From a virus (taxonomy: Duplodnaviria > Caudoviricetes), in IMG/VR virus record IMGVR_UViG_3300027996_002398, positions 1 to 56,076 of that record: a stretch of DNA of 56,076 nucleotides; one strand, 5' to 3'. Shown here in pieces: positions 15,058 to 51,637 of the stretch. A model generated the notes under the pieces. It saw only the letters and a list, made by a program, of their open reading frames with translations. It was not told where the DNA came from and did no database searches. How positions within the stretch are numbered: the first letter of the stretch is position 1; every line of letters begins with the position of its first letter. Position numbers and translations under genes: made by a program.

Positions 15058-15081
15058 ATGCTTTGTGTGATATTTATTAAT

Positions 15082-17204: not shown

Positions 17205-17247
17205 ATCTATTTAAAAGTTTTTTTTTATTATTTAATCATTAACAATA

Positions 17248-18357: not shown

Positions 18358-18632
18358 AAAATATAATACGTAAGGTATTAAAAGAAGAATCAGACAAACA
18401 AACTGATTTAGCTAACTCTAATACTGAAGAACGTAATATATGTGATGATTTTAGTGCTGAAAGTTATGAGGATTTGGTTGATTTGATTAATAAATCACAC
18501 GTATCCAAAGAAGATGACCCTATAATAGAAAAATTATTAGATGAATTAAAATCTGATATGAAAAAGTTGGATACGGAAAAAGACTTAATAAACACATACC
18601 AACATAAAATAGCTACACAACTTTGTAAATGA
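18354..18632 (+). CDS. Hypothetical protein with MKNIIRKVLKEE leader
   Basis: ATGA overlap; shared leader. Confidence 0.72.
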   Translation: MKNIIRKVLKEESDKQTDLANSNTEERNICDDFSAESYEDLVDLINKSHVSKEDDPIIEKLLDELKSDMKKLDTEKDLINTYQHKIATQLCK

Positions 18633-30123: not shown

Positions 30124-30129
30124 ATTATA

Positions 30130-30966: not shown

Positions 30967-30968
30967 CT

Positions 30969-33162: not shown

Positions 33163-34378
33163 TAATCTCAAATTTTGGGCACGGTACAATAAATTTACCA
33201 CCACTATTTAAATAATCACTTTCCCTTTTAATAAACTCGTCAATAAAATGCCAAGGTAACACTAACATATAGTCAGGGTTAATCTTTCTCATCTCATCTT
33301 CGGAATAAATAGGGATATTAGTACCAACGGTTTTTAATCCAAACTTATATGGACTACGTTCCGCAATACCATCAATAAGTGTTTCGTCAAGACCAAACCA
33401 TTGAAGAAGAGTATTACCTTTAGTTGAGGCTCCATAACCCCAAACAGTTTTACCTTCTGATTTCGCTTTCTTAATGAATGCTACAGTCTCATCTTTAAGA
33501 TTATTAATATTCTTCCAAAATTCTATATATGGTTCCACTGAATCCATTTTATCATTTTTTTCTTTTTCTAAAAATGACTCAATTCTATAATTAGCCACAT
33601 CCCTATATGGCGAAGTTTTAAAATTAGAAGGATTAGCGTTTTCTTTTCTAATATAAACCCTAAAACTACCACCATTAACATCATTTAATTTACAATCTAC
33701 TATCTTAAAGTTAACTTTTTCTAAAAGGTTTTTAATGTTTGTTAAGTTATAATAATAAACATGTTCATGACATATATTATCGAAAGCCAATTGTTTAATC
33801 ATTAATGGTGTGTAACTCATTTGTAAAACAAATAAACCCTCATCATCCATAACATCATAAATGTCTTTTAAAAATTTTAGAGGATTATCTAAGTCATAAA
33901 ACATGGCTATACAAGTAACTATTTTAGCCTTTTTATCACCAAATTTAGATTTAATATAAGATTCTTTGTTAAAATAGTCTTGTATGATTAAATCAGCTAC
34001 TTGCCTAGACTCATATGTATAAGAATCGTCTGCTGGGTCAACGCCTATTTTTATCATGTTTTTAGGTATTTGTTTTAACAATGTCCCATCATTACAAGCT
34101 ATATCTAACCACACATCATCATCTTTTATTTTAATACTTTCTGAACATGATAGTGCAATATCACCCAACTCTTTAGTCATTGTTACATTTATACCAGACC
34201 TATACCAGTACTGTCCATACATAGTATCACTATCAGGTGTTTCAGTTAATCTAACCGCTCCAGTTTCTTCTTCCATAACCAAAGTTAGTGGTGACTTTGG
34301 TCCCCTAGGTTTATTATCTTCTTTAATAAAATCAGAAACATATAAACTGCCTAGAGAAAATAATTCTTTTCTTTTCAT
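33152..34378 (-). CDS. NDP-sugar C-methyltransferase
   Basis: LDIACNDGTLL, FDNICHEHVYYY, GYGASTKGNTLL, LPWHF. Confidence 0.88.
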   Translation of the reverse strand: MKRKELFSLGSLYVSDFIKEDNKPRGPKSPLTLVMEEETGAVRLTETPDSDTMYGQYWYRSGINVTMTKELGDIALSCSESIKIKDDDVWLDIACNDGTLLKQIPKNMIKIGVDPADDSYTYESRQVADLIIQDYFNKESYIKSKFGDKKAKIVTCIAMFYDLDNPLKFLKDIYDVMDDEGLFVLQMSYTPLMIKQLAFDNICHEHVYYYNLTNIKNLLEKVNFKIVDCKLNDVNGGSFRVYIRKENANPSNFKTSPYRDVANYRIESFLEKEKNDKMDSVEPYIEFWKNINNLKDETVAFIKKAKSEGKTVWGYGASTKGNTLLQWFGLDETLIDGIAERSPYKFGLKTVGTNIPIYSEDEMRKINPDYMLVLPWHFIDEFIKRESDYLNSGGKFIVPCPKFEIIGK

Positions 34379-34379
34379 T

Positions 34380-34967
34380 TTAATTTATTTTTTTAACTAC
34401 AGTATCATAATGTTCATAACCTGGAAATGCTTTAACATATTTTAAATAATTGTCTTTTGTTTTCTCATAACCACATTTTTTTAAATGTTGTAAAACTTTA
34501 TTTAGTCTACCCCCCCTTAAATGAACACTTTCAAACCTTATTTCTTTAGGTTTAACGTTTTTAAAATCACAATTTAATAATATTAAATCATCAGCACCTT
34601 CAGCATCTATTTGTAATAAATCAAATTCTTTATTTAACATGTTATATTTAGCGACTAAAGATTCTAATTTCAAACAATTGACTTCATCGTATTTATCGTT
34701 ACCCCAGTGGTTTTTATTTATTGAAGCTTGTTGGCTTTTGTTTTTATAATCTTTTCTGCTATATATTTTAATTTCACCATCATAATCAGCAATAGCAGAA
34801 TTTTCAAAAAAACAACCCTCTATTGATTTATAATTCTCAACGAGGCGTTTGAAACTTTCGGGTACCGGCTCCACTAATACACCAACCCATTTTTTTTCTT
34901 TCATTAAGTTCCATATAACATCATTTTCACTGGCCCCTATATTAGACCCTATTTGTATAAAATTCAT
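34380..34967 (-). CDS. FkbM family methyltransferase
   Basis: FIQIGSN.G, LVEP, LLQIDAEGAD. Confidence 0.85.
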   Translation of the reverse strand: MNFIQIGSNIGASENDVIWNLMKEKKWVGVLVEPVPESFKRLVENYKSIEGCFFENSAIADYDGEIKIYSRKDYKNKSQQASINKNHWGNDKYDEVNCLKLESLVAKYNMLNKEFDLLQIDAEGADDLILLNCDFKNVKPKEIRFESVHLRGGRLNKVLQHLKKCGYEKTKDNYLKYVKAFPGYEHYDTVVKKIN

Positions 34968-34978
34968 AATATTTTTTT

Positions 34979-35659
34979 TTATTTTTTAATATAAAAGTCG
35001 TTTATTTTATATCTTTTATCTCTAATAAACCCCCTTTTTTCCATAAAAGATTTAATTTCAATGTCATCATAATTATTTTCAACAACAAATAATTTTACAT
35101 CATATTTATTAAAATCGAAACCTTTTAACACATCTAATTCAGTTCCTTCTGTATCAATTGATATAAAATCTATTTTAGTTATACCATGGAACGGTGTCCC
35201 ACCAACAGTGTTTTCTAAAATCCAAGGTAATGTCTCTACTTTAACCTCTATAGTAAATTTTTCATTTATAATATTTTTATGAGCTTCAACTAATCTATTA
35301 TCAGGTTTTAGTGAAGTTAATGATGACATTATGTTTTTCTCACCAACTTTATAAACCGTTAATGGTAATATGTCTTTTTTATTAGAACAGGCATAATATC
35401 TAATTAATTTTCTATGTTTTTCTAATGATTCTTTATATCCTATATTTGGTTCTATGCATAATACATTCCACCCCATTTCCTCAAAATATAATGTATTAGA
35501 ACCCTTGACCCCGTTAGCAGCACCAACCTCAATACACAAACCTTTATAACCACTATTAAAATAAGATTCTATTATTTTATCTGTTTCCCATTGGCCATAA
35601 TAGTTACCACCATCCCAACCCTTTAGTTCTTGATTTATTTTATCTACATTATACCCCAT
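34979..35659 (-). CDS. FkbM family methyltransferase
   Basis: IEVGAANG..SNT, CIEPN, ISIDTEGTE. Confidence 0.88.
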   Translation of the reverse strand: MGYNVDKINQELKGWDGGNYYGQWETDKIIESYFNSGYKGLCIEVGAANGVKGSNTLYFEEMGWNVLCIEPNIGYKESLEKHRKLIRYYACSNKKDILPLTVYKVGEKNIMSSLTSLKPDNRLVEAHKNIINEKFTIEVKVETLPWILENTVGGTPFHGITKIDFISIDTEGTELDVLKGFDFNKYDVKLFVVENNYDDIEIKSFMEKRGFIRDKRYKINDFYIKK

Positions 35660-36383
35660 TATTCCATATTTTTTTCACATTATTAAAAACATTTAAATCT
35701 TCTTTTTTTAGATTTAAAGAATAAAAATCGTATTTTAAAATTTTACTTATGTCAGCTTGTTTATTTGGTCTCCCCTGTCTCATAGCATCTAAATCGGGAA
35801 AAATAGGGTAATTACCTTTAGGTAAAAGTATCCTTTCATTAAAAACACCATTAATATTCGCAGTTTCGAATTGGTGTGGGGTTTTTATTGATTGGTTTTT
35901 TAATAATTTATTAAATAAACTTTTTCTCCATATTGAAGGTCTGAGGGACGTTGTTGTGTAACTAGCTTTTTTTTGTATAGATTCATAAAAATTTTCATTA
36001 TAATCGATTATTTTAGAATCAATTTTATTATATTTTGGTAATAGTCTTATTTTTCCTATTGTTTTATCTTTTTTTATTATATCAGCACCCTCATTAAATA
36101 AATTAACATTAACAAAATCAATTAAAAAATGGTCTTCAAAGGCCAAAAAAAAGTGTTCTTCATTAATTTTTTCAAAATATGGGGTTATGGCTTTATACCA
36201 AGGTGTGTTATCACTTAAATTAGAACCTAATAACTCAAAATTAAAATTTTTATTTAGCTTAACTTTGGGTTTTTTAAAACCTAAAATAGTAAACTCATTG
36301 GAAGGCCAATATTTATCCATTTGTTTTTGTAAACCATCTAAACAAAAGGAATACTTATTTGAAGTTATTATGTATTTTTTCAT
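35649..36383 (-). CDS. Putative glycosyltransferase (GT-A-like)
   Basis: FFLAFEDHF, PSIWRK and TPHQFE patterns; cluster context. Confidence 0.55.
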   Translation of the reverse strand: MKKYIITSNKYSFCLDGLQKQMDKYWPSNEFTILGFKKPKVKLNKNFNFELLGSNLSDNTPWYKAITPYFEKINEEHFFLAFEDHFLIDFVNVNLFNEGADIIKKDKTIGKIRLLPKYNKIDSKIIDYNENFYESIQKKASYTTTSLRPSIWRKSLFNKLLKNQSIKTPHQFETANINGVFNERILLPKGNYPIFPDLDAMRQGRPNKQADISKILKYDFYSLNLKKEDLNVFNNVKKIWNNGV

Positions 36384-36685
36384 TTATCCTCTGTTTTGTA
36401 AAACTTATTTTTACCAGTCCCTAATAATTCATCGGCTGTTAATTGTATTGTTGAATCACGATTAACGGACTTGTCAACTAATACTCTTAAAGAAGCGTTT
36501 ATTTGGTCTATTAAATTATTTCTTTCTTTATTTGTTGCACTAATTTTATTTAAAAAAATTTTTATATCATTTTCAGATTTACTAGTTTCTGTGTTACAAT
36601 AAATTCGTCTATCATCTTCTAACATCCATAATCTTATGTTTGATATTGTTAGTTTGTCTATTAAATCACCTATAGTATCTGCCAT
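36380..36685 (-). CDS. DUF4254-like helical protein
   Basis: TIGDLIDKLTI.NIRLW.LED..R...N.ERN.LIDQI. Confidence 0.6.
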   Translation of the reverse strand: MADTIGDLIDKLTISNIRLWMLEDDRRIYCNTETSKSENDIKIFLNKISATNKERNNLIDQINASLRVLVDKSVNRDSTIQLTADELLGTGKNKFYKTEDK

Positions 36686-36687
36686 AA

Positions 36688-37551
36688 TTATATATTTATT
36701 ATAAGGTTATCTAAAAATAAAGATTTCTCAATAGTAGGCCATAAATTATATTTATTTAAAATTATTTCTCTAGCCTCACTAATTTTATCTAAATTTTGTT
36801 CTCTAATATCACTCTCACTTATTTCTATTATCTTATCAATCACATTTGGGTCATCTATATCTATTTTAACGTATGAACCTTTCGGTAAAAACTTATCTAT
36901 TTTACTACAGCCCCAATATATTGGCATTGACCAACACAATAATGGGTCTATTATTTTTTCTGAAAAATAAAACGGTTTACTCCCATTTTCAATAGATAAA
37001 TGGTATTTATACGGTAATAACCCATTTTTTTTGTCTTTAGGTGGTAATATATCTTTATATGGGCCTTTATTTTTTTTACCTCTAGTCATGCTACCCCAAA
37101 CATCTATATCGTTGTAGTTCTTAACAAGTGATTCAATAATATTATATCTAATTCTTTGGCCCTTTGTTGACTTTTTATTAGAATTTATAGCACTTAATTT
37201 TTTTGTTTTATTTATTTTTTGTTCTTTTTTTAACTCATCATACGGTATATCCACCCACCAAGTTTGTGGAAACCAACTATTACCCTTTTCAAAATGAAAT
37301 TCTTTTAAACAATTATTACAACTATTTTTAGCGATATAATATGGTTCCTTACCAAAAAAAATTGTTTTTGTTTTATCTATATTTTTTAATGTTGTAGTTT
37401 CTTGCATAATAATATAGTCAGAATTTTTTATATCGTAGGTGCTCTCTATATTACCCCAAACACCGCTATTTTTTGGTGTTTGTCTTTTATACCAATTAGT
37501 CATTTCTTCATTTGATAACCCCCAAGCTGGAGCAAAATATATTTTTTTCAT
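36688..37551 (-). CDS. GT10 (alpha-1,3-fucosyltransferase-like) glycosyltransferase
   Basis: YKYHLSIEN...YFSEKIID......PIYWG. Confidence 0.85.
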   Translation of the reverse strand: MKKIYFAPAWGLSNEEMTNWYKRQTPKNSGVWGNIESTYDIKNSDYIIMQETTTLKNIDKTKTIFFGKEPYYIAKNSCNNCLKEFHFEKGNSWFPQTWWVDIPYDELKKEQKINKTKKLSAINSNKKSTKGQRIRYNIIESLVKNYNDIDVWGSMTRGKKNKGPYKDILPPKDKKNGLLPYKYHLSIENGSKPFYFSEKIIDPLLCWSMPIYWGCSKIDKFLPKGSYVKIDIDDPNVIDKIIEISESDIREQNLDKISEAREIILNKYNLWPTIEKSLFLDNLIINI

Positions 37552-37554
37552 TTA

Positions 37555-38145
37555 TTAAAAATTAAAATTAAAAGATTTTACATCCATTAAGTAATAATCT
37601 TTAACTATTTTAATCATATCATCATTTTTATAATAATCTCTATAATTATTGTTATTACTTTTATTAATAAGTGGTATTTCTATTTTTTCGTTTAAAATTT
37701 TTGACAGTTCTTCATTTATATTTTTAATGTCTATTAAATAGTCTACCATTATTTTTGTGCCATTAGAAATATAGTTTAACTGATTAGCCCACCCCTGATG
37801 TCTTAATTTTTTAGGTGAGTTTTCTAACAATTTTAAACATTCTAAAAAAGACATATCTTTTAGTAAATCATAATCTAAGTGTTTACCGGCTCTAGCTTTA
37901 TTTTTAGATGAATGCCAATAACTATCATCCATTTTTGCGTATTCATAACAAGAAACCACCCTATCCCATGGGTTTCTAATTATAGATATTTTTTTATATT
38001 TTTGCCATTTATGTGGGTATTTTCTGGCATAGTAAGACCAACTATGGTGACCAGCATCAACCATATTTAAATGGTTAGTTATAGATGTACCAGCATTTTT
38101 AGGTATATGTACAAAAATTAATTTATGTTTATCTGATATAGGCAT
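37555..38145 (-). CDS. Sulfotransferase family 2 protein
   Basis: FVHIPKNAGTSI and IRNPWDRVVSCY. Confidence 0.88.
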   Translation of the reverse strand: MPISDKHKLIFVHIPKNAGTSITNHLNMVDAGHHSWSYYARKYPHKWQKYKKISIIRNPWDRVVSCYEYAKMDDSYWHSSKNKARAGKHLDYDLLKDMSFLECLKLLENSPKKLRHQGWANQLNYISNGTKIMVDYLIDIKNINEELSKILNEKIEIPLINKSNNNNYRDYYKNDDMIKIVKDYYLMDVKSFNFNF

Positions 38146-38151
38146 AATAAA

Positions 38152-38913
38152 TTATTTTAACCATTTCCATTTTTTTATCTCATTTAAGAGTTGTTCTTTA
38201 TTTAATCTTTTTATTCTTTGTATTTCTTGTCCATTAAACACATAAAAAGGATTTCTTTCGTTACTATTTGAGGTTCTACTGTGTGTTAGGTGATATAAAG
38301 TGCCATTTGCCCTACATAACTCATACCCTAAAAATTTGACTCTGTGAATTCTTTCCCAATCTTCATGCCCCCATGAAATAAAATTTTCGTTTTCCCAACC
38401 AATTTCACGATATCTTTCTTTATGGAAGAAAAGAGCTCCACCAACCGAGTTGGGATTAAATAAAGTGCATTGGCCCAAGGGTATTTCCAATAATTTATCA
38501 TCATTAACTAAATCAAAGAATTTTCTAGGTATATCATAAAATTTTCCAGCATAAGGAAAACACATTGTACACCCTTCTTCTATTTTTTTCTTAGCGTCTA
38601 TGTATTGGGCTATCGGAAAAATGACATCAACATCATAATTAACAACTATTTCTGTTTCTGCTAATTTAGTCATATCATTTAATAGTCTAGTTCTATGAAA
38701 CAATTTTTCATCATTTTTTTCAAAAACATATTTAATTTTTTCTGAAACTGATTTAACAAATTCTTCATTAGATTCTTTATCACTATCTAAAACTATTATG
38801 TTTGTGTCAAAGTTTCTTAAAAGGTAATTCATTGATATCTTGAAATTGTTTCTTCTATCTTCCGAATCAAACCTTATTGGTACTATAAATGTTACATCTT
38901 TAAAGTCTATCAT
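38152..38913 (-). CDS. Glycosyltransferase (GT2/GT7 C-terminal-like)
   Basis: YDVD (DxD), NENFISWGHED, LYHLTH. Confidence 0.85.
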   Translation of the reverse strand: MIDFKDVTFIVPIRFDSEDRRNNFKISMNYLLRNFDTNIIVLDSDKESNEEFVKSVSEKIKYVFEKNDEKLFHRTRLLNDMTKLAETEIVVNYDVDVIFPIAQYIDAKKKIEEGCTMCFPYAGKFYDIPRKFFDLVNDDKLLEIPLGQCTLFNPNSVGGALFFHKERYREIGWENENFISWGHEDWERIHRVKFLGYELCRANGTLYHLTHSRTSNSNERNPFYVFNGQEIQRIKRLNKEQLLNEIKKWKWLK

Positions 38914-40457
38914 TATCCTCTATTTTGGTAAATCATTTGTAATTGTTGTTGTACCTGTTCTGGTGTTGCCACTGGTGTCTCAGTAGGTGTCATTCCATGT
39001 TTCTTTTTATACCAAGCCGTACCCTTTCTAAAATTTTCATTCCATGTATCTGTATGCCCTATAGTACTTTCTTCTATTGAGTTAGGTATATCTGTTAGAT
39101 AATCCCAACTCCTATCTATATCAGCGAAATACCAAAAAGCTGGGTGATACATTTTTTTAATTGCTTGGTATGTGTGTTCTACATGTTCCCACGCATTTTT
39201 AAACACTGGGTCAAACCCACCTAAGTCTTCTAATACTGGTCTATAATAATAAGAAAACGCACCAACACAGTTGGGGTATAAAGCTACCCTAACATCTTCA
39301 TTATCTTTATCACCATTACTATATGGGACCACCATCCTAGGATTAGGCTTACCGTCAATATCTTTTCTCTCATCTAATGTTTTAAACCCCTGACTCCCCT
39401 TTTTATTTGCTGGCCCATGTAACGCAAAATTTAAATGTTTAATTCCCGAAATTAGTGAATGTTTAATATATTCTTCAAAAACATTCTCATCTTTAATAAG
39501 AATATCATCCTCCATTATGAATATGTGTTCACAATCAGTGTTTTCCATTAAATAATTAATTGCTGTTGTCTTAGCCGCACCAACAGATTTATTTTTTTCG
39601 TGTTGGATAATATGTGCTTGTTCGGGATAAGATTCTTTAGGGTATGGTGTCCCATCATTAACTATAACAAAGTTTTTAACCCATTTAGGTACTGTAAAAG
39701 CACTTTGTTTAATCCTATGTTCAGCATTATATGTTACCATACCGAAAGCAACTGAATCGGGGTTAAATTTTAATTTTTCATCAAAAGTTTTATTACTGGT
39801 TAACCTAACGGGTAATTTGTCTTTATATTTTTCTTCAAATCTAAGTTTATGTCCCTCCCATTGTTGGTTTGTTTGACCAATAGATAAGTGTGTAATCCTT
39901 ATGAATGTGGTTAAACCAATTTTAACACCATCTAAATAATTAGGAAAACAAAATGAAATATCGTAAAAATGGAACCCGTGAAAATCTTCGTCAAATGTGT
40001 GTTTTATTTTTGTTTTATCTATCGCAAAAAATAACCCATCTAATGCCACCATTTCGGTTATTGTTTTACCTTGGTCTTTTGAATAATAATTAGTCCATTT
40101 TTTACCTTCGTGTTGGTGTGAAACTATACCATTCATAGACTCTTTTAGTGTCCACCACCTACCGTCTATTAAATCGGTAGTCCCAGCGATACCAATAATA
40201 CCATATTCAGGGTTTTTTTCAAATAAAGATTTTAATTTACGGCCCCAATTTTTGGTATTGAAAATAATGTCGTCATGACAAAAAACCACAATATCATTAT
40301 TTGTTTCTTTTAAACCTTTATTGTACGCTTGTGTTAATGACATTTCACCATCATTAACAATTTCTATAATTTCTATTTTATGTATACCACTAGTTTTTTT
40401 TATTTCTTCAATAAATTCTGGTTTAGTGGTTCTAGTTGAGTATATTACGCTAATCAT
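38913..40457 (-). CDS. Two-domain GT-A glycosyltransferase
   Basis: Domain 1: AYNKG..FCHDD..FHFYD. Domain 2: IVNDG..IMEDD..GGFD..EH. Confidence 0.82.
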   Translation of the reverse strand: MISVIYSTRTTKPEFIEEIKKTSGIHKIEIIEIVNDGEMSLTQAYNKGLKETNNDIVVFCHDDIIFNTKNWGRKLKSLFEKNPEYGIIGIAGTTDLIDGRWWTLKESMNGIVSHQHEGKKWTNYYSKDQGKTITEMVALDGLFFAIDKTKIKHTFDEDFHGFHFYDISFCFPNYLDGVKIGLTTFIRITHLSIGQTNQQWEGHKLRFEEKYKDKLPVRLTSNKTFDEKLKFNPDSVAFGMVTYNAEHRIKQSAFTVPKWVKNFVIVNDGTPYPKESYPEQAHIIQHEKNKSVGAAKTTAINYLMENTDCEHIFIMEDDILIKDENVFEEYIKHSLISGIKHLNFALHGPANKKGSQGFKTLDERKDIDGKPNPRMVVPYSNGDKDNEDVRVALYPNCVGAFSYYYRPVLEDLGGFDPVFKNAWEHVEHTYQAIKKMYHPAFWYFADIDRSWDYLTDIPNSIEESTIGHTDTWNENFRKGTAWYKKKHGMTPTETPVATPEQVQQQLQMIYQNRG

Positions 40458-40657
40458 TTTTTAAATTTTTTAAACTCTTCTTCTGTTAATTCATAATCTA
40501 GTTTAAATTCAGTAACTACGTATTCACTAGCGTTATTAATATATACATTATAGTGTTTATCACCAACCCTAATATTACACCCAGATTTAGAATTAATAGA
40601 CATATCAAAAAATAAATCTTCAACACTTTTAGATGGTAATTTTCTTAACAATTTCAT
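40454..40657 (-). CDS. Small hypothetical protein
   Basis: 67 aa, packed in the operon. Confidence 0.6.
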   Translation of the reverse strand: MKLLRKLPSKSVEDLFFDMSINSKSGCNIRVGDKHYNVYINNASEYVVTEFKLDYELTEEEFKKFKK

Positions 40658-40660
40658 ATA

Positions 40661-41152
40661 TTATTTTTTAACTTCAATAATGTTAATAGGTTCTTCACAA
40701 TAAATGGATAGATGACACGCCGCCTTTATAGATTCTTTCACACTATTCCCTAAATAAAGAGCTGATAACGCGTAATCCATACCAGCTCCAATCGCGGTAT
40801 AATCAGTTACTTCTTTAATAAAAAAACCTTCCATCATAAAAGCTTTCCCATTTAAAATAATAACGTACTGATTTTCTAATTTAGATATCTCTACTTTTTT
40901 AGACATCCAATCCTGAAACTCTGACATAAACTCAACCAAATCTTCAACTGAAGCCGCTCTAGGTTTACGTGTTTTACAATACATAAGAAATAGGGCACCT
41001 TCTTGAGCATCACCTACATCCCCAATAACCATCCCATTTATTTCGTTTAATTTGGCTAACTTATCTTTTTCTTGCGTCCAGCCTGAAACCAAGATACTAT
41101 CAGCCCCAATGGTTATTTTATCTTTTTCTACTTTTACTGCTACTACACTCAT
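40661..41152 (-). CDS. Ntn-hydrolase, HslV/proteasome-beta-like peptidase
   Basis: M-SVVAV...IGADS...K, and AIGAG..YAL.AL. Confidence 0.7.
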   Translation of the reverse strand: MSVVAVKVEKDKITIGADSILVSGWTQEKDKLAKLNEINGMVIGDVGDAQEGALFLMYCKTRKPRAASVEDLVEFMSEFQDWMSKKVEISKLENQYVIILNGKAFMMEGFFIKEVTDYTAIGAGMDYALSALYLGNSVKESIKAACHLSIYCEEPINIIEVKK

Positions 41153-41745
41153 TACTTCGTACCTGTTGAACCGAACCCTCCGTCACCACGTTCAGATTCA
41201 TTTATTTCTAAAACTTCAATTAAATCCCCAAAATCAGAACTAATTCTATGTGATACCACACCTTGAGCAATTCTCTCACCCTTATCCCAAGTAAACTTTT
41301 CGTTACTTATGTTAACTAAAAGAACTTTAATTTCACCTCTATATCCAGTATCAACAGTTCCTGGTGAATTAAGTACTGTAACACCATTTTTATATGCCAA
41401 ACCACTACGAGGTCTAATTTGTAATTCATAACCATCAGGAAGTTCAAAATATAAACCTGTACCAACAAGTTTTCTTTCTAATGGTTTTAATGAACCCCTT
41501 TCATTAGCTCTTAAATCAAAACCAGAATCACCGATTTTAGCGTATACAGGGTTTTTGTTATTTGACTCGTTTATATATTTAATTTTAACCTTTTTAATTT
41601 TAGATTCGGGTTTTTCTTTATCGTAATCTTGGACAGATTCAGCTAGTTTTATAGCCATCATAATTTCTTCTTTAGTTTCTGATGGTAACATATCCATTTT
41701 AGCCAAAGATTTTAATTCCTTAATTTGGTTTTTAATTTCGCTCAT
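41152..41745 (-). CDS. dut: Trimeric dUTPase
   Basis: SGFDL, RPRSGL, GTVDTGYRGE, RIAQ, RGDGGFGSTG. Confidence 0.95.
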   Translation of the reverse strand: MSEIKNQIKELKSLAKMDMLPSETKEEIMMAIKLAESVQDYDKEKPESKIKKVKIKYINESNNKNPVYAKIGDSGFDLRANERGSLKPLERKLVGTGLYFELPDGYELQIRPRSGLAYKNGVTVLNSPGTVDTGYRGEIKVLLVNISNEKFTWDKGERIAQGVVSHRISSDFGDLIEVLEINESERGDGGFGSTGTK

Positions 41746-42455
41746 TATTTTAAATTATTTAATTTTGTTATTATATCTACAAGAGCTTTTACGTCTTTTT
41801 CACAATACTCTTTAATTTCTTCATGATTACCTTCCCAATAGTTTGTAGTTACGTTACCACCTTTAACATCACCATTTTTAGGTGAGTCAATATTTAAAAC
41901 TGTACACATTAAATCTAAAGAACCAATAGACCAATTATTACCAAATTGCCAGACATTTTTTGTATCTAAAACTCTAAGGTCCCAAGGTTTTGTGTCGTGT
42001 AATGGGAATAGTTTTGGTGGTTTCATTCCATTAATAAAATATCTTTTTCCTAGAAATGGGATATCAAACATTTTAATATTTTGACCACAAAGGTCGAAAC
42101 CAAGCGGTTCAATTTTATCAAATATTTTTCTAGTCTCAGTTAAAACATGTAATTCATCTTCACCATAAAAAGATTCAAACCTAACCTCACCACCTTTTGT
42201 AACAAAAGCCATAGAAACACAAGCAACTTTCCCAAACTCAGGAAAAAATGCCGCAGTTTGCCGATAAACCTCTCTTTTAATATCTTTTTCATCCATAACT
42301 GGGTCTATTTTATTTTCGTCAGTTACTTTTTTTCTAAATGAATCATAATAAGATTCCCACATGTTTAATTGCCTATCAGGCATATCATACAAGTCTTTAT
42401 ACTGACTTACCGACTCAATATCAAAAAATAATAATTTATCTACTTTAAACTGCAT
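41745..42455 (-). CDS. PolB-type 3'-5' exonuclease (DEDDy)
   Basis: FFDIES, GQNIKMFDIPFL, YCEKDV. Confidence 0.85.
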   Translation of the reverse strand: MQFKVDKLLFFDIESVSQYKDLYDMPDRQLNMWESYYDSFRKKVTDENKIDPVMDEKDIKREVYRQTAAFFPEFGKVACVSMAFVTKGGEVRFESFYGEDELHVLTETRKIFDKIEPLGFDLCGQNIKMFDIPFLGKRYFINGMKPPKLFPLHDTKPWDLRVLDTKNVWQFGNNWSIGSLDLMCTVLNIDSPKNGDVKGGNVTTNYWEGNHEEIKEYCEKDVKALVDIITKLNNLK

Positions 42456-42481
42456 TTGTTAATCTTTTTTTATTAAATTAA

Positions 42482-43801
42482 TTAGACATTATTAGTATGT
42501 TCGATAAACTCTTTAATTTGATTTTTATTATCAGAAACTATCTGTTTATACCATGTTGCCCTAGTATTAGTGACAGTATTTATATGGTATTTATCTTTTA
42601 CTGTTTCGTATAAATTGTTTGATAAAAGTTCTACTAAACCAGGATTATCATTTAATTTCTTAAGAGCTTTATACCAATCCTTATGGTTTTTTCTAGTTTC
42701 AACTAAAATAGCGTTACCTTTTTCATTTATTTTACCGCCATACTCTATTAAAGGTACACAATCTATTTGATAAGGTCCATAGTCTTGTGCGATTAAAGCT
42801 TTTTTATGAAAACCAGCTTCAATAACTTTTAATTGTGATTTATTTTTATTAAAACTATGTTCTTTAATTGGGGCCATAGAGATATCGAATAAATTGTAGT
42901 TAGAAGCGTAAGAAGTAATAGGTTTGGTCCAAACCCTTCTATAAACCTCATCTAAATTATTAAATTGCTTATCACTAGGTTCATCAAATTTTTTCAGTTG
43001 CTTTAAATAACCTTCGTTAATTATACCGTATTTTTTAGTAAACATTTCTTCATACCTAGACCAAACACTTTCCTCTGGTTTAATTTTCCTAGTTTTTTGT
43101 TGTTTAGTGTTTTTATCTATTTCAGTAATATTACCTCTAGTATCAAAACCACATAATACCATTTGTGAATTTTCTTTATTTTCATCTAAAAACCTACTAA
43201 CACTACTACCAATTAGAATTAAATCATGATAGTGAGAAGAACCACCTAACCACCCAATTCTAGTTTTTTTATTAGTTTTTTCTGGTTTTGGTGTAAATTG
43301 TTTTTCATTAGGGTCAATTGAGTTAGGTAACACTATTACGTTTTCATTTAATTTACTAATTTCTTTTGCAAAAATTGGGGTAGTTGTTGTAACGTAATTA
43401 ACTTTTTTAATATTTTCTTTAATTTTTTGAGGTAACTTATCGTTAATAATCATTTGGTATGCCGGATGTTCTTTAGAAGGTTCCCAATAATCATCTAAAT
43501 CCATAATTGTTATAATACCTAAAGCATGAATTTTATTCAATACATCATACATTTCATCTAAATAAACATGCCTTAGTTGTCCGTTAATGACTTTAGGTAG
43601 GGTTCTGTGAAAGTGTATTATATCATATTTTTTTAAATAGGAAGAATCGTCCCAACTAAAATCCATAGTTCCGGCTGTAACTATGTCTACATGGAATTCC
43701 TCATTATATAATTCTTGTAATTTCATATGGGGTTCTACTGAACGAAACTTCGATACCCCTGTTCTATCCGATGGAAGAACTAAAACTTTTATCTTACTCA
43801 T
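42482..43801 (-). CDS. Glycosyltransferase, GT-B/GT4-like
   Basis: DLDDYW, IGWLGGSSH..D, DISMAP..FN..KSQLKVIEAG. Confidence 0.82.
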   Translation of the reverse strand: MSKIKVLVLPSDRTGVSKFRSVEPHMKLQELYNEEFHVDIVTAGTMDFSWDDSSYLKKYDIIHFHRTLPKVINGQLRHVYLDEMYDVLNKIHALGIITIMDLDDYWEPSKEHPAYQMIINDKLPQKIKENIKKVNYVTTTTPIFAKEISKLNENVIVLPNSIDPNEKQFTPKPEKTNKKTRIGWLGGSSHYHDLILIGSSVSRFLDENKENSQMVLCGFDTRGNITEIDKNTKQQKTRKIKPEESVWSRYEEMFTKKYGIINEGYLKQLKKFDEPSDKQFNNLDEVYRRVWTKPITSYASNYNLFDISMAPIKEHSFNKNKSQLKVIEAGFHKKALIAQDYGPYQIDCVPLIEYGGKINEKGNAILVETRKNHKDWYKALKKLNDNPGLVELLSNNLYETVKDKYHINTVTNTRATWYKQIVSDNKNQIKEFIEHTNNV

Positions 43802-46431: not shown

Positions 46432-49308
46432 TTATGCACTAATTGTCTCACCTTTAGAATCTAAAGACTTTTTAGAATCACTAAACCTATCTTTAATCAT
46501 ATAATCAGGTGATACCTTTTGTGATTCCCAAAACACCAACTCTTCATCACTAGGTGTCATTAACTCTTCTAGGTTATCTTGGTCACCTTCTTTAGACGCA
46601 ATACCAGAAACTAACTCTAATTCACTTCTAGTAAAAAATTGTTTTTCTGTTGGGTCAGTGATTAATAAAGACTCTCTAATATGTGTCCTAAAAACAACCA
46701 ATAAAGGTTCTACTTTTTTATTAAAAGCCGATAAATATTTTGGTACATTATACTCACCCTTTAGATTTGGGTTCTTTTCCATCTGTTCGGAACTAATTAA
46801 ATAAGAGTTAAAAACTAAAATTCCTTCAGGTGGGTCCGTTTTTCTTTTTCTAACCTGTATATCACCGTGTGATTTTCTAGAACCATTATTAATATAAAAT
46901 ATATTATCACCTAATTGTGGCTCAACACCTTCTTTTATCAATAACTCCATGTGAGCTTGTCTTGGCAGTGGTAGTTTGTTTTTATTTAACCCTCTATTTT
47001 TATATTGCTTAATAGTTTTTTTAACTTTTGAGTTGTTGGCTATTTCGGATAAAGGTATATCCATATTATAAATTCTTTCAAGGTAAGAATTATAGTAATC
47101 TACAAACCCTTTACCATCACCGTTTAACAACATTTTTATACCATTATTTAAAAAAGTTTTAATATATTTTTGGATTGTTTTACCTTTTATAGTATTACCA
47201 GTTAATTTAATCTTACCATTTGGCTTTAGTGTTGCGTAGTTTTTACGAGATAAATTAATTGTTGCTGGCCAAATCTCATCAATATCTAGACCCATAGCTC
47301 CATACATAAATCTATCGTTATATTCAGAAACATCAGCTTCAATTCCCTTATATTCCTTCCCTTCTTCAACAAATTTATGGAAACCACGACCAATGTAAGT
47401 GTGGTCACTAACGTTTTTACCATAAGAAAAGTTTACACCATCCGTATCTAAAACTAATGGTTTATAGTCTTTATCCATAAAAAACTGAATCATATGTCTT
47501 AGATATTGTCTGCCTGTACAGGTAATCATCTCACCAATATTAATATCACCCCAAGGAAATATATAGGGAGCTGAAATAGAACCAAAAGCTGAGTTGTTGA
47601 AAATTTTAATCGGTAATTGTTTTTTATCAAACTTACTACCCAAAAAGTTGTTACCTTCTTTATAATATTTACCGGCAAGATGTTTGTATTCATTACGTGT
47701 ATCCAAAAGGTACTGTAACATAGCTTCCAAAGCCCCTGAAACATCTACTTCAGGGAATACGTTATGGGTTAGTTGTATTGAAGGGTAAAGTGATGCGTAA
47801 TCAAATTTAGCAATATTAACACTATAACCTAAATTTAACAATCTAGACAAACCACCAACAAAATCTCTTTTTGGTTGTGTATCGGGTAATGCTAAATTAT
47901 TCTCATACGACCAAGCCATCATTAATAACTTCCACATTGTGGCCGTACCCATTGTTATAGACCTACCAAAGTTGGTTGGTACTAGAGCCGCTGTTAAAAA
48001 TCCAGCTTGAGCATAGGTATCATCAACTTGTTCTGTTTCTAAAAGGTCATCATTAAGATATTCCCTTAATAAAAATCTACCATCAACAATTTCCCACTTA
48101 TCTTCATAACCATCAATAATCTTACTATCAACTTCTTTAGGTTCTGGTTTAACACCATCCAAACCATACCATTGACCTGAAGTTGGGTTATAATTAAAAT
48201 CTTTGTTCTCATTCCAAATTTTACCTAATTTAGCACCATCAATATAAACTCTATTGGGCCTTTCTAATCCTGCTTCTTGAGCTATATACTTCAGTCTACC
48301 ATTTTGTAAACTAGAATTTAAAGCCATAGCTTGTCTAACTCTATGGTATGTATCCATGATATTATACCCCCACATTGTTGTTTGATAATAATCTTCTATC
48401 TCAGCACCCATTTTTAATGTTGCTGGTTTTCTAGCTAAACCTACCATTGGGTGTTTAGTTTTTATTACATCGGATAATATGTTTATCGAAGTTATTCTAT
48501 TATCTTTTTTATTCCTTCTAATATTTGTCTCCGACATACCCAATATGTCCATTCTACCAAAAATATAATTCCAATCAAAGTTTTCCGAGTTATACCCAAC
48601 AATAATGGAAGGTTCTAATTCGTGTATAATTTTAAATAAATCTTCATACATCTTCTTTTCACCTTCCTTACTATAATTACCGTCTTTACCATAAGCTGTT
48701 AACAACTTTTTAAAACCACGATTATCTTTAACCCCAACCATAAACGAATGTCCTGTTTCAGGTGTTAAACTAGTTGTCTCAATATCAAATGTTAGTTTAT
48801 GTACGTCAGTATAATCTTCATAACCTTTAAATAACCTTTTACCTGTTTGAACCATGAACTGTTCTACGGGTGGTAAAATCTGTACTAATTTTCTATCCCT
48901 ATCCCAAGGGTTTATACCCCCTCTTTTTAAAAAGTTAACCAAATCACGATAAGTACCTGTTGTTTTAACAATATACTTATAACCATCTTCTAACCTTTCA
49001 TTATCACCTGTTTTTAGTTTCTCCGTATAAATACCAAATTCTTTAGCCTTTCTTTTTATTTTTTCAACATCATCATCATAAAAGCCACTCCCTTTTAATG
49101 ATTTTGTCCAACAAAAAGGTGTAAACTTTTGGACTTTAATTCTTTTACCCTTCTTAGGGTCATCAATAACAATATATACTTTGTTTGTTTCGTCTATTGA
49201 CCAATCTCCTGTTTGGTCTAACTCTATAGATACGATATATTTTTCATCGTCATGCCCTTCTAAAAACTTTTTAATATCCTCTGGGGTAGCTTTTTCTATC
49301 TTACTCAT
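46432..49308 (-). CDS. polB: DNA polymerase family B
   Basis: Exo motifs FDIET, GYNSENFDW, YLNDD; Pol motifs DYASLYPS, KIFNNSAFG, DTDG. ATG 49308 chosen; GTG 49344 is an alternative. Confidence 0.95.
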   Translation of the reverse strand: MSKIEKATPEDIKKFLEGHDDEKYIVSIELDQTGDWSIDETNKVYIVIDDPKKGKRIKVQKFTPFCWTKSLKGSGFYDDDVEKIKRKAKEFGIYTEKLKTGDNERLEDGYKYIVKTTGTYRDLVNFLKRGGINPWDRDRKLVQILPPVEQFMVQTGKRLFKGYEDYTDVHKLTFDIETTSLTPETGHSFMVGVKDNRGFKKLLTAYGKDGNYSKEGEKKMYEDLFKIIHELEPSIIVGYNSENFDWNYIFGRMDILGMSETNIRRNKKDNRITSINILSDVIKTKHPMVGLARKPATLKMGAEIEDYYQTTMWGYNIMDTYHRVRQAMALNSSLQNGRLKYIAQEAGLERPNRVYIDGAKLGKIWNENKDFNYNPTSGQWYGLDGVKPEPKEVDSKIIDGYEDKWEIVDGRFLLREYLNDDLLETEQVDDTYAQAGFLTAALVPTNFGRSITMGTATMWKLLMMAWSYENNLALPDTQPKRDFVGGLSRLLNLGYSVNIAKFDYASLYPSIQLTHNVFPEVDVSGALEAMLQYLLDTRNEYKHLAGKYYKEGNNFLGSKFDKKQLPIKIFNNSAFGSISAPYIFPWGDINIGEMITCTGRQYLRHMIQFFMDKDYKPLVLDTDGVNFSYGKNVSDHTYIGRGFHKFVEEGKEYKGIEADVSEYNDRFMYGAMGLDIDEIWPATINLSRKNYATLKPNGKIKLTGNTIKGKTIQKYIKTFLNNGIKMLLNGDGKGFVDYYNSYLERIYNMDIPLSEIANNSKVKKTIKQYKNRGLNKNKLPLPRQAHMELLIKEGVEPQLGDNIFYINNGSRKSHGDIQVRKRKTDPPEGILVFNSYLISSEQMEKNPNLKGEYNVPKYLSAFNKKVEPLLVVFRTHIRESLLITDPTEKQFFTRSELELVSGIASKEGDQDNLEELMTPSDEELVFWESQKVSPDYMIKDRFSDSKKSLDSKGETISA

Positions 49309-49370
49309 AAATTTAGATTTTTGGTACGGGTTAATCTTACCCACTAGTTAATAATATTTTAATTATAGGC

Positions 49371-49410
49371 ATAAAAAAACACATCGTAAATAATCAGATG
49401 TGTTTTTTAT
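49371..49410 (-). terminator. Inverted repeat: terminator of the DHH-sigma gene, overlapping the putative polymerase promoter
   Basis: AAAAAACACATC-N11-GATGTGTTTTTT. Confidence 0.65.
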
Positions 49411-49412
49411 TT

Positions 49413-51362
49413 TTATCTACCTAAAAGCCCTTTTATTTTATTTTTCGCTTTCATTAAATTTGTTTTTGATGTACTTGTGGATACACCTAATTCTTTAGCT
49501 ATTTCGTTATGGGTTAAACCATCTAAATAGTAAAGTTCAAATGTTTTTTTGTATGCTGGTGATAGTTGTGGTAAAACTTTTGTGATATCACTTATAGAAA
49601 GATTTTCTTCTTCTTCTTCGTAGTCTTCATCACTATTATCATACCTAGAAAAGTCAAATCCATCTTCATTATCAACAAAAGATAATTTATTTTTTCTTAA
49701 TTCATCCAAGATACTATTATTAATAACCCTTCTTACCCAACCAGCTAATGAACCAGTTTCTTCGTATTTATGTAAATTTTTATGAACTTTTATAAATCCA
49801 TTTTGACAAAAATCTTCTGCTTTACTTACATCGTTTGTGTATTTCATGCAAACTTGTTTCAACATTTTGTCCCACATAGTAGAGTATATTTCTTGAAACT
49901 CCTTAACTTCTTTTAAAATAGTTTTTTTTGTTACTATATTTTCTTGTACTTTATCTTTATCTATTTTTTCTTTTAATTTATTAATAAGACTATCTTTTAA
50001 CTTTTTTAAGAAATCATTACCACCTTTACCAAAATACATCATACCAGATATGTTAGTAATACATTTGTGTCCACCACTATTCGCTTGAACCATATCCCAA
50101 CCTGTTACGGATAATAATTTAAGTGCCTTCCTTTCTCTAACACTTAAGTCACTATAAGGTTTGTCCATAACTTTTTTAATTGCACTTTGCCATCTCTCAA
50201 CCGTATAGTCCTCTGGTGAACCTTTAGGTGTTTTTTCTACACCACTAACACCACCACTAGACTCTTCAAACATGGCCATCATATCTTTAAACGTAAAACC
50301 AACAGATTCGGAGTTAAATGATTTATGTTTTTCAGCAAAATATTTAATAGTATCTACAGTTATTTTTTTAGATTTTAATTCTGACTCATATTCCTTTAAA
50401 ACTTCTTGAGCTATTTCACCTAAATTAACACCTTTTAATTCTCTACTAGCCTTAAAAGGGTTACAAGATGCCTGTAATAAACCTAGAGGCCAAGCTATAA
50501 CTAAAAAATTAGCTTCAGGGTAATTTTTAAAAGGTACGTATCTATCATAAGCACCAGGTTTAAATAAAGCTCCACCGCCATATTGTGATATAATACCGTA
50601 ATCTTCTATATATTCTACATTTTCACTAGATTTTTGTTTTAGAATATAGACATCTAGATTTGTTTTCATAACATCAGGTGAAACATAACCATCTTCTTTA
50701 GCTTGTTTAACTATATTTAAATAAATATTTAAAAGAGATGGTGTTGAGTTCATTACTAGATTTTCTAAAAATTTAGGTTTATTTTTATAGGCCAACAATA
50801 ACTTATTGGTCACTAAAGCCATAATTTTTTTATTTCTAGAAAGTTCTTTTTCTCTATCTAACTGAAAAACGTAAGTCATAACATCTTCAGGTTTAATTCC
50901 CATGTTAACAAAATCAGCCGAATCAACAGTAGAAATCATTTTAATGTCGTTATTTGGGAATATGTCGGAAGGTGAGACTATCTGTGAAATTGTCTCAACG
51001 TTTGAACGAGAAGACCTAAAAGAAGTTGAAGCGTTTTTTTCAGCACCAACCTGTTTATCGTGATGGTCAGTGTGTATAACAAACATTGGTTTACCATGAG
51101 CGAAATCAACTAAAACTGGCATGATATCACCTTTAGCTGATGGTTTTTTAATAGCGAACTCTTTATCACCATACTGTACTATTTCAGAATCAACAACCTT
51201 TATTCCGTTATTCTCCAAATAATTTTTCATTGCCAAAGCCGTGGTAACCCCGTCTAAATCTTGATGGAAATATATTTTTGCTTTAGAATATCTTTTAGAT
51301 AGTTCACGTATATTACGTAAACCACCTTCATTTAATAACCCCTCATTTAAAATAATGTTCAT
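49413..51362 (-). CDS. DHH/DHHA1 phosphoesterase fused to an ECF sigma factor
   Basis: HQDLDG, VDF, DHH (aa 99-101), SGGH; then from about aa 486 AEDFCQNGFIKV..GWVRRVINNSILDELRK (region 2) and LSPAYK..DGLTHNEIAKELGVSTSTSKTNL.KAK (region 4); late motif at 51378-51386. Confidence 0.85.
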   Translation of the reverse strand: MNIILNEGLLNEGGLRNIRELSKRYSKAKIYFHQDLDGVTTALAMKNYLENNGIKVVDSEIVQYGDKEFAIKKPSAKGDIMPVLVDFAHGKPMFVIHTDHHDKQVGAEKNASTSFRSSRSNVETISQIVSPSDIFPNNDIKMISTVDSADFVNMGIKPEDVMTYVFQLDREKELSRNKKIMALVTNKLLLAYKNKPKFLENLVMNSTPSLLNIYLNIVKQAKEDGYVSPDVMKTNLDVYILKQKSSENVEYIEDYGIISQYGGGALFKPGAYDRYVPFKNYPEANFLVIAWPLGLLQASCNPFKASRELKGVNLGEIAQEVLKEYESELKSKKITVDTIKYFAEKHKSFNSESVGFTFKDMMAMFEESSGGVSGVEKTPKGSPEDYTVERWQSAIKKVMDKPYSDLSVRERKALKLLSVTGWDMVQANSGGHKCITNISGMMYFGKGGNDFLKKLKDSLINKLKEKIDKDKVQENIVTKKTILKEVKEFQEIYSTMWDKMLKQVCMKYTNDVSKAEDFCQNGFIKVHKNLHKYEETGSLAGWVRRVINNSILDELRKNKLSFVDNEDGFDFSRYDNSDEDYEEEEENLSISDITKVLPQLSPAYKKTFELYYLDGLTHNEIAKELGVSTSTSKTNLMKAKNKIKGLLGR

Positions 51363-51427
51363 TTTTTATCTTTTTTAAATAAATATCACTACTTTACATT
51401 CAGTTCAATTAATTTATCTAAATATTG

Positions 51428-51637
51428 TTAAGCTTTATTCTCCTCTAACTCTATAAGTTTGTCTAGATAAGTTTTTGCTTTTTTTAAATCCTCTATACCG
51501 TTCTTATCTTTCCATCTGGTTACATATTTAACAATATTACCTTCAAAGAAATCTAATTTATGCGAATAAGCATAATCCCACATCTCAACCCCTTTATTAT
51601 AATGTTTGGGGTGTACAACCCTTTCTTTACTCTTCAT
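51428..51637 (-). CDS. DUF3310 family protein
   Basis: VVHPKHY, EGNIVKYVTRW..KNGIEDLKKA..YL. Confidence 0.85.
   Translation of the reverse strand: MKSKERVVHPKHYNKGVEMWDYAYSHKLDFFEGNIVKYVTRWKDKNGIEDLKKAKTYLDKLIELEENKA

Follow-up and report, generated by a model that had tools for sequence, protein, structure and literature searches.

Positions 49413 to 51362 on the minus strand of the uncultured viral record IMGVR_UViG_3300027996_002398 hold a single open reading frame (ORF) that runs from an ATG start through 649 amino acids (75 kDa) to a stop codon, joining a complete DHH/DHHA1 phosphoesterase to a complete sigma factor of the extracytoplasmic function (ECF) type. We refer to the whole stretch of DNA analyzed, 56,076 bases, as the window. 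That one frame contains both domains in full had been proposed from the letters of the DNA alone (hereafter the original prediction), and motifs, profiles, a structural model and fold matches now agree on it. The main new point, read from sequence comparison, is that standalone relatives of this sigma factor carry amino-terminal leaders (MRNIIKKILKEE...) shared with small ORFs of the phage head module, a remnant of which is kept as the linker of the fusion.

A phosphoesterase and a sigma factor in one frame

The carboxy-terminal half of the protein contains sigma regions 2 and 4 and lacks regions 1.1 and 3, as in the ECF (group 4) layout, with both regions scoring above the cut-offs of their profiles (Table 1) and with SigW, SigE and SigH as the closest sequences in PDB. 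It is also matched by phrog_1740 (E value, 3.5e-26) and is 23 to 30% identical to the sigma genes of crAss-like phages. A layout of regions 2 and 4 only is common to the known phage ECF-type sigmas (PHROG 1740, crAss-like phages, T4-like jumbo phages); unlike these, however, the sigma factor of the window is the carboxy-terminal domain of a 649-amino-acid enzyme, and its free orthologues bear a leader of 12 to 45 residues common to head proteins.

The amino-terminal half is a DHH/DHHA1 phosphoesterase, as judged by motif conservation and predicted fold. Whereas the sigma half is called by profile, this half is not: its Pfam DHH score of 20.0 bits (E value, 9e-4) lies below the cut-off of 28.1, the DHHA1 profile of Pfam gave no hit on the protein, and a sequence search of PDB matched sigma factors only, with nothing for the DHH half. 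Conservation and fold carry the assignment instead. Across 61 aligned sequences, down to 28% identity, residues D37, G38, D86, D99, H100, H101 and D147 are invariant, as are R274, N301, K340, E344, G430, G431 and H432, and D35 is conserved in at least 90%; the GGGH-type motif of DHHA1 takes the form S429-G430-G431-H432. The strings H33-Q-D35-L-D37-G38, D99-H100-H101 and G430-G431-H432 were verified in the protein, together with its amino terminus (MNIILNEGLLNE) and the linker (VQENIVTKKTILKE, amino acids 472 to 485). An AlphaFold model of amino acids 1 to 472 reached a predicted local distance difference test score (pLDDT) of 92.8 and a predicted template modeling score (pTM) of 0.90. Its top fold match is the PAP phosphatase 8a8k_A (Z score, 17.1; root mean square deviation, 3.9; 284 residues aligned), followed by the pGpG phosphodiesterase PggH 7d62_B (16.8; 5.3; 268). 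Matches to RecJ, NrnA, DhhP and GdpP lie at Z scores of 10.8 to 14.2, with RecJ and Cdc45-type proteins at 12 to 14, and Foldseek matched DhhP with an E value of 8e-7.

With NrnA, PggH, PAP phosphatase, DhhP and GdpP, the domain shares all DHH motifs, the DHHA1 GGH and the two-domain fold. Identity to this group is only 10 to 15%, however, and at ~470 amino acids the domain is larger than that of NrnA-type enzymes (~320), the ~150 extra residues coming from two helical inserts at about amino acids 150 to 245 and, within DHHA1, about 336 to 428. The invariant active site makes the family a good candidate for a counter-defense nuclease or phosphodiesterase. Because the DHH half scores under the Pfam cut-off, databases name the protein only as a sigma factor or leave its unfused form unnamed. 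Profile annotation overlooks this divergent branch, PF01368 being found on 3 of the 120 protein clusters listed, and nearby Atlas clusters, all of them 100% viral, are called "hypothetical protein." The family as a whole is small, virus-only and unnamed: a set of 1.84 billion representatives contains 362 clusters of it at 50% identity.

The DHHA1 domain closes with a terminal helix ending in LKEKID, and unfused relatives stop 3 to 5 residues beyond that helix. In the model of the full-length protein, pLDDT falls below 50 at residues 1 to 13 (1 to 12 in the model of amino acids 1 to 472) and at linker residues 473 to 480, and pTM is 0.70, compared with 0.90 for the amino-terminal domain alone. 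Neither a signal peptide nor a membrane segment was flagged in the protein by Pfam scans or the fold model. Because a terminator-like hairpin with a U-run directly follows the stop codon (none of 200 shuffles folded as well, and a simple terminator scan had missed it), the gene would form a transcription unit of its own.

Table 1. Features of the fusion gene and its immediate flanks, in window coordinates
Feature	Position	Strand	Basis
Whole ORF: leader, DHH/DHHA1 phosphoesterase, linker, ECF sigma	49413-51362	-	Profiles, model, contigs of four runs
Promoter-like motif GATATTTAT, -10-only type	51379-51387	-	16 nucleotides before the ATG; probable structural-gene (late) class
Amino-terminal leader, amino acids 1-13 (MNIILNEGLLNEG), LNE at 5-7 and 10-12; putative capsid-targeting propeptide	51324-51362	-	Disordered in model
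DHH catalytic domain, amino acids 14-200; D35/D37, D86, D99-H100-H101, D147	50763-51323	-	Invariant columns, fold matches
Helical insert and DHHA1, amino acids 201-470; R274, N301, K340, E344, G430-G431-H432	49953-50762	-	Conservation, model, fold
Linker, amino acids 471-487 (KVQENIVTKKTILKEVK); candidate cleavage sites after E474 and E485	49902-49952	-	Aligns with amino termini of standalone sigmas
Sigma region 2, amino acids 488-559	49686-49901	-	Pfam Sigma70_r2 (PF04542), 52.8 bits against a cut-off of 24, amino acids 499-559; PDB matches SigW, SigE, SigH
Acidic disordered inter-domain stretch of sigma, amino acids 560-589	49596-49685	-	pLDDT <50 at 560-586
Sigma region 4 (helix-turn-helix), amino acids 590-649	49416-49595	-	Pfam Sigma70_r4_2 (PF08281), 49.4 bits against a cut-off of 25.7, amino acids 593-643; NCBIfam TIGR02937 sigma70-ECF, 111.3 bits against a cut-off of 42.9, amino acids 488-645
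Terminator-like hairpin and U-run directly after the stop	49370-49408	-	RNA fold -12.8 kcal/mol, z -5.54

With its completeness estimated at 17%, the window is a fragment of a genome of ~300 kb, and its source is an uncultured jumbo phage of marine origin whose head is of the T4 type. The head module lies on the plus strand and comprises the large terminase, the portal, a Peptidase_S77 prohead protease (8488-9219; 96.4 bits in a profile search of the window) and a Gp23-family capsid protein (243.6 bits); a prohead protease of the T4 gp21 type, as posited by the original prediction, is therefore present. The closest cultured relatives of the capsid protein, at 38 to 43% identity, are those of Flavobacterium phage immuto, Microcystis phage Mel-JY01 and Rhodothermus phage RM378. 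The fusion gene, on the minus strand, follows an SNF2 helicase and a DUF3310-like gene and precedes DNA polymerase B. Elsewhere in the window, a glutamine-synthetase-like gene (6759-7868, plus strand; Gln-synt_C, 67 bits; Gln-synt_N, 35 bits) occupies the interval between portal and protease within the head module, and an ORF with an SprT-like metalloprotease domain (11406-11894; 25.2 bits against a Pfam cut-off of 25.6) lies within the same module on the opposite, minus strand. One long minus-strand block (29086-43801) holds sugar-nucleotide epimerases, methyltransferases, a sulfotransferase-like gene and glycosyltransferases, along with PhoH, dUTPase, an HslV-like peptidase and a 3'-5' exonuclease, and may serve DNA or surface glycan modification. 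A PADLOC scan returned 0 families.

Spread and origin of the fusion

A relative in which the two genes stand next to each other unfused (L008, below) shows that a missed stop codon or a frameshift would have had neighboring genes to join. Several lines of evidence nevertheless rule out such an assembly or sequencing artifact, to which we give practically no credence. A 961-base contig identical to window positions 49321 to 50281, and thus crossing the junction, occurs in each of four public runs from four studies (the source sample being possibly among them), and no insertions or deletions were listed across 49300 to 51500, a span that takes in the region 49880 to 50000 where the original prediction had located the point to be checked. 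Full-length fusions, 640 to 653 amino acids long and 69 to 98% identical, account for 30 of the 120 best protein clusters, and in these as in 13 viral loci, drawn from different samples, the frame is kept even though the linker differs in length. The fusion is a genuine, conserved and selected gene. One further fused cluster, P0031 (933 amino acids), has an insert of ~290 residues separating the DHH domain from the sigma factor. The impression that the architecture is unfamiliar holds in part: proteins of this kind are unnamed or named only generically, yet they are present in databases as metagenome proteins. A tblastn search of 50,697 phage records with the whole 649-amino-acid protein matched 12 of them, none covering 80% of it, and only 2, both uncultured, matched the DHH part, so that no cultured relative among these records has the gene.

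Among 80 related viral loci that were typed, the sigma factor is fused in frame in 13 and is encoded as its own gene directly downstream in 1 (L008). The DHH gene is unfused, at 453 to 487 amino acids, in 30 loci and forms a complete ORF fused to other domains in 23; in 5 it exceeds 590 amino acids and runs off the contig, and in 8 it is truncated or too short to tell. The gene order SNF2, DUF3310-like, DHH(-sigma), DNA polymerase B is identical in fused and unfused loci.

Relatives that encode the halves separately do give the sigma factor a leader of its own, of the type found in small head-module ORFs. One 210-kb relative (G001) has an unfused DHH gene, 80% identical, and a free sigma factor of 181 amino acids (48% identical to amino acids 477 to 647; E value, 5e-51) that lies ~65 kb from it, at the end of an operon whose other products are large and probably structural. 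A ClpB/ClpA-like ATPase of 825 amino acids (phrog_4871; E value, 1e-259) and an endolysin-like gene adjoin this free sigma (G001:85729-88056; L088:9730-12207, minus strand), and the same genome has a second ECF-like sigma, leaderless and 200 amino acids long (L083:1081-1683). In L008 (positions 4001 to 6188), the DHH protein has a different 60-residue tail and is followed, after 46 nucleotides, by a separate sigma gene beginning MRNIIKKILREEL..., with a full 45-residue leader; this appears to be an intermediate arrangement.

Phylogeny points to repeated switching between the two states. A tree of the DHH domain (107 rows, with P0008 labeled unfused despite being fused, and with 14 rows dropped as incomplete or with motifs unmatched by the pattern) requires the fused state to have changed at least 6 times, and a quickly built sigma-domain tree (115 rows) at least 4 times. 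In addition, there are near-identical pairs of fused and free sigmas (P0003/P0272, P0014/P0277 and P0015/P0274). By these comparisons, fusion and fission, or recombinational exchange, have been frequent, and the halves would work joined or apart. In another locus (L018:4093-5454), the DHH ORF ends in a linker remnant (…KLSENAFTKKQLLKQYGL, then stop) with DNA polymerase B directly after it, which likely reflects secondary loss of the sigma from a fused ancestor. A search for sigma genes in five unfused contigs found PF08281 in one of the five; all are fragments of 52 to 88% estimated completeness, so absence means little.

Since L008 has the DHH gene, 46 nucleotides and a leader-bearing sigma gene in succession, the fusion was most likely born from such a downstream neighbor by loss of the intervening stop and start. 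The original prediction had held a lost stop to be unlikely, given that no methionine lies at the junction. The observation itself is correct: amino acids 444 to 495 contain no ATG, GTG or TTG codon, and fused relatives do not conserve M496, which leaves the fusion without a conserved internal start. The conclusion drawn from it fails, however, because a missing methionine is a consequence of stop and start loss and no argument against it.

The sigma factor is one of several carboxy-terminal domains found on this DHH family. The alternatives are M23 peptidase, PG_binding_1 with or without GH19, SET, GNAT, DUF3293/SAM-lyase-like domains and family-less stretches, and non-sigma cargo was confirmed in the DNA of viral contigs. 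In two loci of a distant clade (L075:3426-6370 and L049:3426-6247), an endolysin-like gene (phrog_7; E value, 1.6e-30) has its stop codon overlapped by a DHH gene carrying PG_binding_1/GH19 or M23, and the fusion is flanked by genes for a DNA methyltransferase and a NUDIX hydrolase. Family-wide, the DHH module looks like a carrier with exchangeable carboxy-terminal cargo, and wall-degrading domains would make sense on a virion-delivered protein.

Leaders, glutamate boundaries and promoter

Of all full-length standalone sigma orthologues (86), 46 carry before the sigma fold one of two strict leader patterns, typified by MRNIIKKILKEE and by MKIKITESQY...LLKES (the ITESQY pattern). The same type of leader opens ORFs 9219 (MKKKVIKLTEQDLEKLVKKIIKED), 9574, 10220 and 10537 (MNIRKIIKEELIKEVGG) in the head region of the window, as well as 15058 (from its second methionine), 18354 (MKNIIRKVLKEE) and, in a looser form, 15354. 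The pattern [KRQ][IVL][IVL][KR]E[EDS] has 9 hits in the 64 window ORFs; 6 of these fall within the first 30 residues, and all 6 belong to the head region, from the protease to 18.6 kb (binomial p ~1e-4, for a pattern defined post hoc). The leader-bearing ORFs occupy 9219-11046, 15058-16043 and 18354-18632 on the plus strand of the window and 29 places in G001 (loci L088 to L099). They share only their amino terminus, M-x-[IL]-[KR]-[KR]-I-I-[KR]-E-E..., with DDFDW frequently coming next, or an I-T-E-S-Q-Y block coming first. Because none of the 28 such G001 ORFs scanned has a Pfam family, the sigma factor is the only leader-bearing protein of G001 with a recognizable fold. We regard these ORFs as candidate capsid cargo, or else as candidates for another targeting system or a recombination cassette. 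Leader protein 10537 of the head module had no match in cultured phages, gene 11979 in the scaffold position had only weak matches, in four Flavobacterium phage immuto records, and the KIIKEE leader was not seen in the head module of that phage.

In the fusion, the linker ENIVTKKTILKEVKEF aligns with the free-sigma leader IIKKILKEEVTKQTEF (the G001 sigma begins ILKEELLKENLRF), and it is a remnant of the sigma's own leader from which the methionine has gone. The amino-terminal leader of the fusion, for its part, resembles that of head-module ORF 10537.

The cleavage consensus of the T4 prohead protease gp21 is L/I-x-E, and sites of this kind mark both boundaries of the DHH module. At the amino-terminal boundary, [ILVFM]xE stands directly before an invariant anchor, SG[IL]RNI, in 56 of 68 DHH-family representatives; 8 others begin at M-SG, and 3 of the remaining 4 keep the glutamate at the boundary position. 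The leader ahead of the anchor is variable in sequence and 1 to 74 residues long (median, 11), and in the window protein the boundary reads MNIILNEGLLNE followed directly by GGLRNI. Past the last DHH helix, [ILV]xE follows within 4 to 6 residues in 31 of 36 fused proteins, and in 10 of the 15 with non-sigma cargo, against a background of 0.195 in any 15-residue window, the 21 sigma fusions not being mutually independent. Unfused DHH proteins end just short of this site. The capsid protein of the window has only 3 [IL]xE sites in 591 amino acids, and two of them lie at residues 49 to 60, where a gp23-like propeptide would end. A depletion of [IL]xE in the mature parts (4 in ~614 amino acids, compared with ~10 expected) proved not unusual among window ORFs and was not used.

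The motif GATATTTAT upstream of the gene has 11 matches in the window against 2.48 expected, a number reached by 0 of 100 shuffles. Thirty-one of the 80 loci were examined for it: all 22 close loci have it upstream of the DHH gene, even as the surrounding flanks diverge, and all 9 distant loci lack it. Ten ORFs of the window, among them those of the terminase, the portal and the protease, have ATATTTAT at a promoter position. It far outranks every other upstream word in enrichment in G001 (40 of 93 regions, with 4.4 expected), and these promoters show no -35 conservation (at most 0.2 bits at every upstream position, 93 sites). The motif precedes 43 of 245 G001 genes, the unfused DHH gene among them. 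Forty-one of the 43 were scanned and 6 could be named, namely, terminase, portal, prohead protease, tail sheath, tail tube and a weak adaptor match; there was no replication gene among the 6. The notion that the gene sits behind a late motif is supported by association, in that all six named genes are structural or packaging genes, and these associations favor (G)ATATTTAT as a phage-specific, -10-only class of structural-gene (late) promoter.

A second upstream class, TATATTTG(T), was found in 8 of 52 regions (12-fold enriched). It resembles what we take to be the -7 element of Bacteroidota sigma-A, TAnnTTTG, and the genes behind it would be early ones, transcribed by the host polymerase. This host-like class was also all that emerged when we looked for a second class, of bipartite promoters, that the ECF sigma might read. 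In the window it occurs at 17205-17260, upstream of the minus-strand ORF 16464-17204. Together with the Flavobacterium-phage relatives of the capsid protein, this class hints at a Bacteroidota host. No RNA runs containing this part of the window were listed, and four metatranscriptome runs contained next to none of its sequence words, which has no bearing on expression.

A packaged precursor and its alternatives

The tags shared with head proteins suggest that both halves are loaded into the capsid, cut apart and injected. Our preferred reading, to which we assign a probability of about 0.45, is that of a late-made, capsid-packaged and protease-cut polyprotein delivered to the next cell. The DHH and sigma modules would belong to a set of late proteins bearing a short amino-terminal capsid-targeting leader. 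The polyprotein would enter the prohead core, where the gp21-type (S77) protease would cut after the glutamate of [ILV]xE in two places, where the leader ends and within the linker, and the freed phosphoesterase and sigma factor would enter the next host along with the DNA. The sigma would then redirect the host RNA polymerase, and the phosphoesterase, with its NrnA/PggH/PAP-phosphatase-like fold, would hydrolyze pAp, dinucleotides or cyclic-oligonucleotide immune signals. Six grounds speak for such a precursor: the shared leaders, the conserved glutamate boundaries and the S77 protease and, beyond these, the late-type promoter, the wall hydrolases carried as cargo by sister proteins, and the free exchange between fused and separate states.

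The closest precedent is T4. As described in passages of two papers, its internal proteins and Alt carry propeptides of 7 to 10 residues that target the prohead core and are removed by gp21, which cuts after glutamate; Alt is cut at both ends, injected, and modifies the host RNA polymerase; and a capsid-targeting sequence has been proposed as the means by which T4-like phages load varied proteins (PMC9026906, PMC3012670). The window phage likewise has a T4-type head (Gp23, gp20-like portal, S77 protease), its unrelated proteins share short amino-terminal leaders ending in hydrophobic-x-Glu, and the proposed cargo would act on host transcription, as Alt does in the passages cited (PMC9026906). 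The leader sequence is unrelated to that of T4, however, the cargo here is a sigma factor and a phosphoesterase in one precursor, and leader ORFs are far more numerous (29 in one 210-kb contig) and known from sequence alone. A virion RNA polymerase is packed by N4 and phiKZ-type phages, which resemble the proposed system in carrying transcription specificity in with the DNA; they pack a whole polymerase, whereas here only a specificity factor for the host core would be packed. Polyvalent proteins (Iyer et al. 2017) also combine one conserved module with varied effectors (peptidase, GNAT, SAM-lyase-like) and are thought to be co-delivered with DNA, but the window protein, at 649 amino acids, is much smaller and has one cargo domain and no known packaging-anchor domain in Pfam; "DHH" and "sigma" each have 0 occurrences in that paper. 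The open literature, with subscription journals and supplements outside the scope, yielded no DHH-sigma fusion, no packaged or ejected sigma factor and no mention of this DHH family.

A number of observations weigh against packaging. Leaders matching a strict pattern are missing from 40 of the 86 standalone sigmas, of which 13 are essentially leaderless and about a dozen are near matches, and the patterns were chosen after the sequences had been seen. As capsid cargo, 29 leader-bearing ORFs out of 403 in G001 would be many, and the Pfam scan of 28 of them, which found no family, offers no functional cross-check. The likeness to the leaders of small head genes, which the original prediction had drawn for the fusion itself, is real for the sigma orthologues, whereas the amino terminus and linker of the window protein only resemble the strict pattern and fail to match it. 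Much the same applies to its cleavage-site argument: the boundaries are conserved, but the bare motif proves little, as chance [IL]xE sites are common (1.62 per 100 amino acids) and such a site falls within the first 20 residues of 25 of the 64 window ORFs. The linker is modeled by AlphaFold as a helix, at low confidence. The gene is placed between the SNF2 helicase and DNA polymerase B, in the replication module and outside the head module, and the DHH-lysin fusion located right after an endolysin-like gene in the distant clade could mean lysis rather than ejection. Finally, because the likely early promoters resemble host sigma-A sites, an injected sigma would not be needed to start transcription.

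The main rival, possible though in our view rather unlikely, is a bifunctional late or middle protein of the cytoplasm. Its sigma would serve phage promoters, possibly those of the ATATTTAT class (and would then be autoregulated), its DHH domain would clear nanoRNA, pAp or immune nucleotide signals, the fusion would couple nothing but dosage, and the leaders would have a purpose unrelated to the capsid. It is typical for an ECF sigma gene to lie behind its own promoter, and this one lies behind ATATTTAT both when fused and when free in G001, as the last gene of a motif-led operon. The replication-module surroundings fit as well, and jumbo T4-like phages are described in one report as using their own sigmas with the host polymerase and, in separate mentions, as having DHH phosphodiesterases that likely act in counter-defense (PMC7824862). 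Frequent fusion and fission, too, shows the halves to be equally good apart, with no polyprotein logic needed. What such a protein leaves unexplained is the sigma leader common to head-module ORFs, the conserved [ILV]xE boundaries and the cell-wall hydrolases on sister DHH genes. Moreover, ATATTTAT, the only phage-specific class found, comes without a -35, yet the sigma keeps a full region 4, which normally reads the -35.

Two further readings seem to us improbable. In one, DHH/DHHA1 would regulate the sigma factor, as an anti-sigma acting in cis or as a sensor of nucleotides, and sigma activity would depend on whether substrate is bound or the amino-terminal domain has been removed. ECF sigmas with fused regulatory extensions are known, and the neighbors of the gene, DNA polymerase B and the small DUF3310-like gene, include no separate anti-sigma. 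Most DHH members have no sigma to regulate, however (30 of 80 loci unfused and 28 with other cargo), and the sigma is commonly free-standing; the invariant catalytic residues are those expected of an enzyme, and the drop in pTM from 0.90 to 0.70 in the full-length model, with its low-confidence linker, gives no sign of a fixed interface. The other, which we rate lower still, has the DHH family act at the envelope or in lysis, depleting a nucleotide signal of wall homeostasis as lysins attack the wall, with the sigma form as a side branch and no packaging. Fusions to M23, PG_binding_1 or GH19 are counted for it in 28 of 80 loci (23 complete ORFs and 5 off the contig), and endolysin-like genes are overlapped at their end by the L075 fusion and adjoin the free sigma in G001. 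It provides no role for a sigma factor, though, nor was a signal peptide or membrane segment flagged, and a leader plus wall hydrolases would equally fit virion-associated lysins.

Even on the plainest reading, the analysis defines a virus-only DHH/DHHA1 family missed by profile annotation, with all of its 362 clusters unnamed, and documents its repeated fusion and fission with a phage sigma factor. Beyond the single protein, we tentatively propose, with somewhat less assurance than for packaging of the fusion itself, that a clade of marine jumbo T4-like phages tags ~30 late proteins for the capsid, an injected ECF sigma included, and uses DHH as a carrier of cleavable, swappable effectors. 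If the packaged reading is true, the phage would provide the first known case of a sigma factor entering the cell together with phage DNA: a ready-made promoter-specificity subunit would be injected for the host RNA polymerase, a form of transcription takeover not described before, which would take its place between T4, injecting an enzyme that modifies the polymerase, and N4 and phiKZ, injecting a whole one. The DHH module would then be named as the carrier on which effectors are exchanged, and the leaders would serve as a simple tag by which capsid cargo could be predicted from sequence across a large group of uncultured ocean phages.

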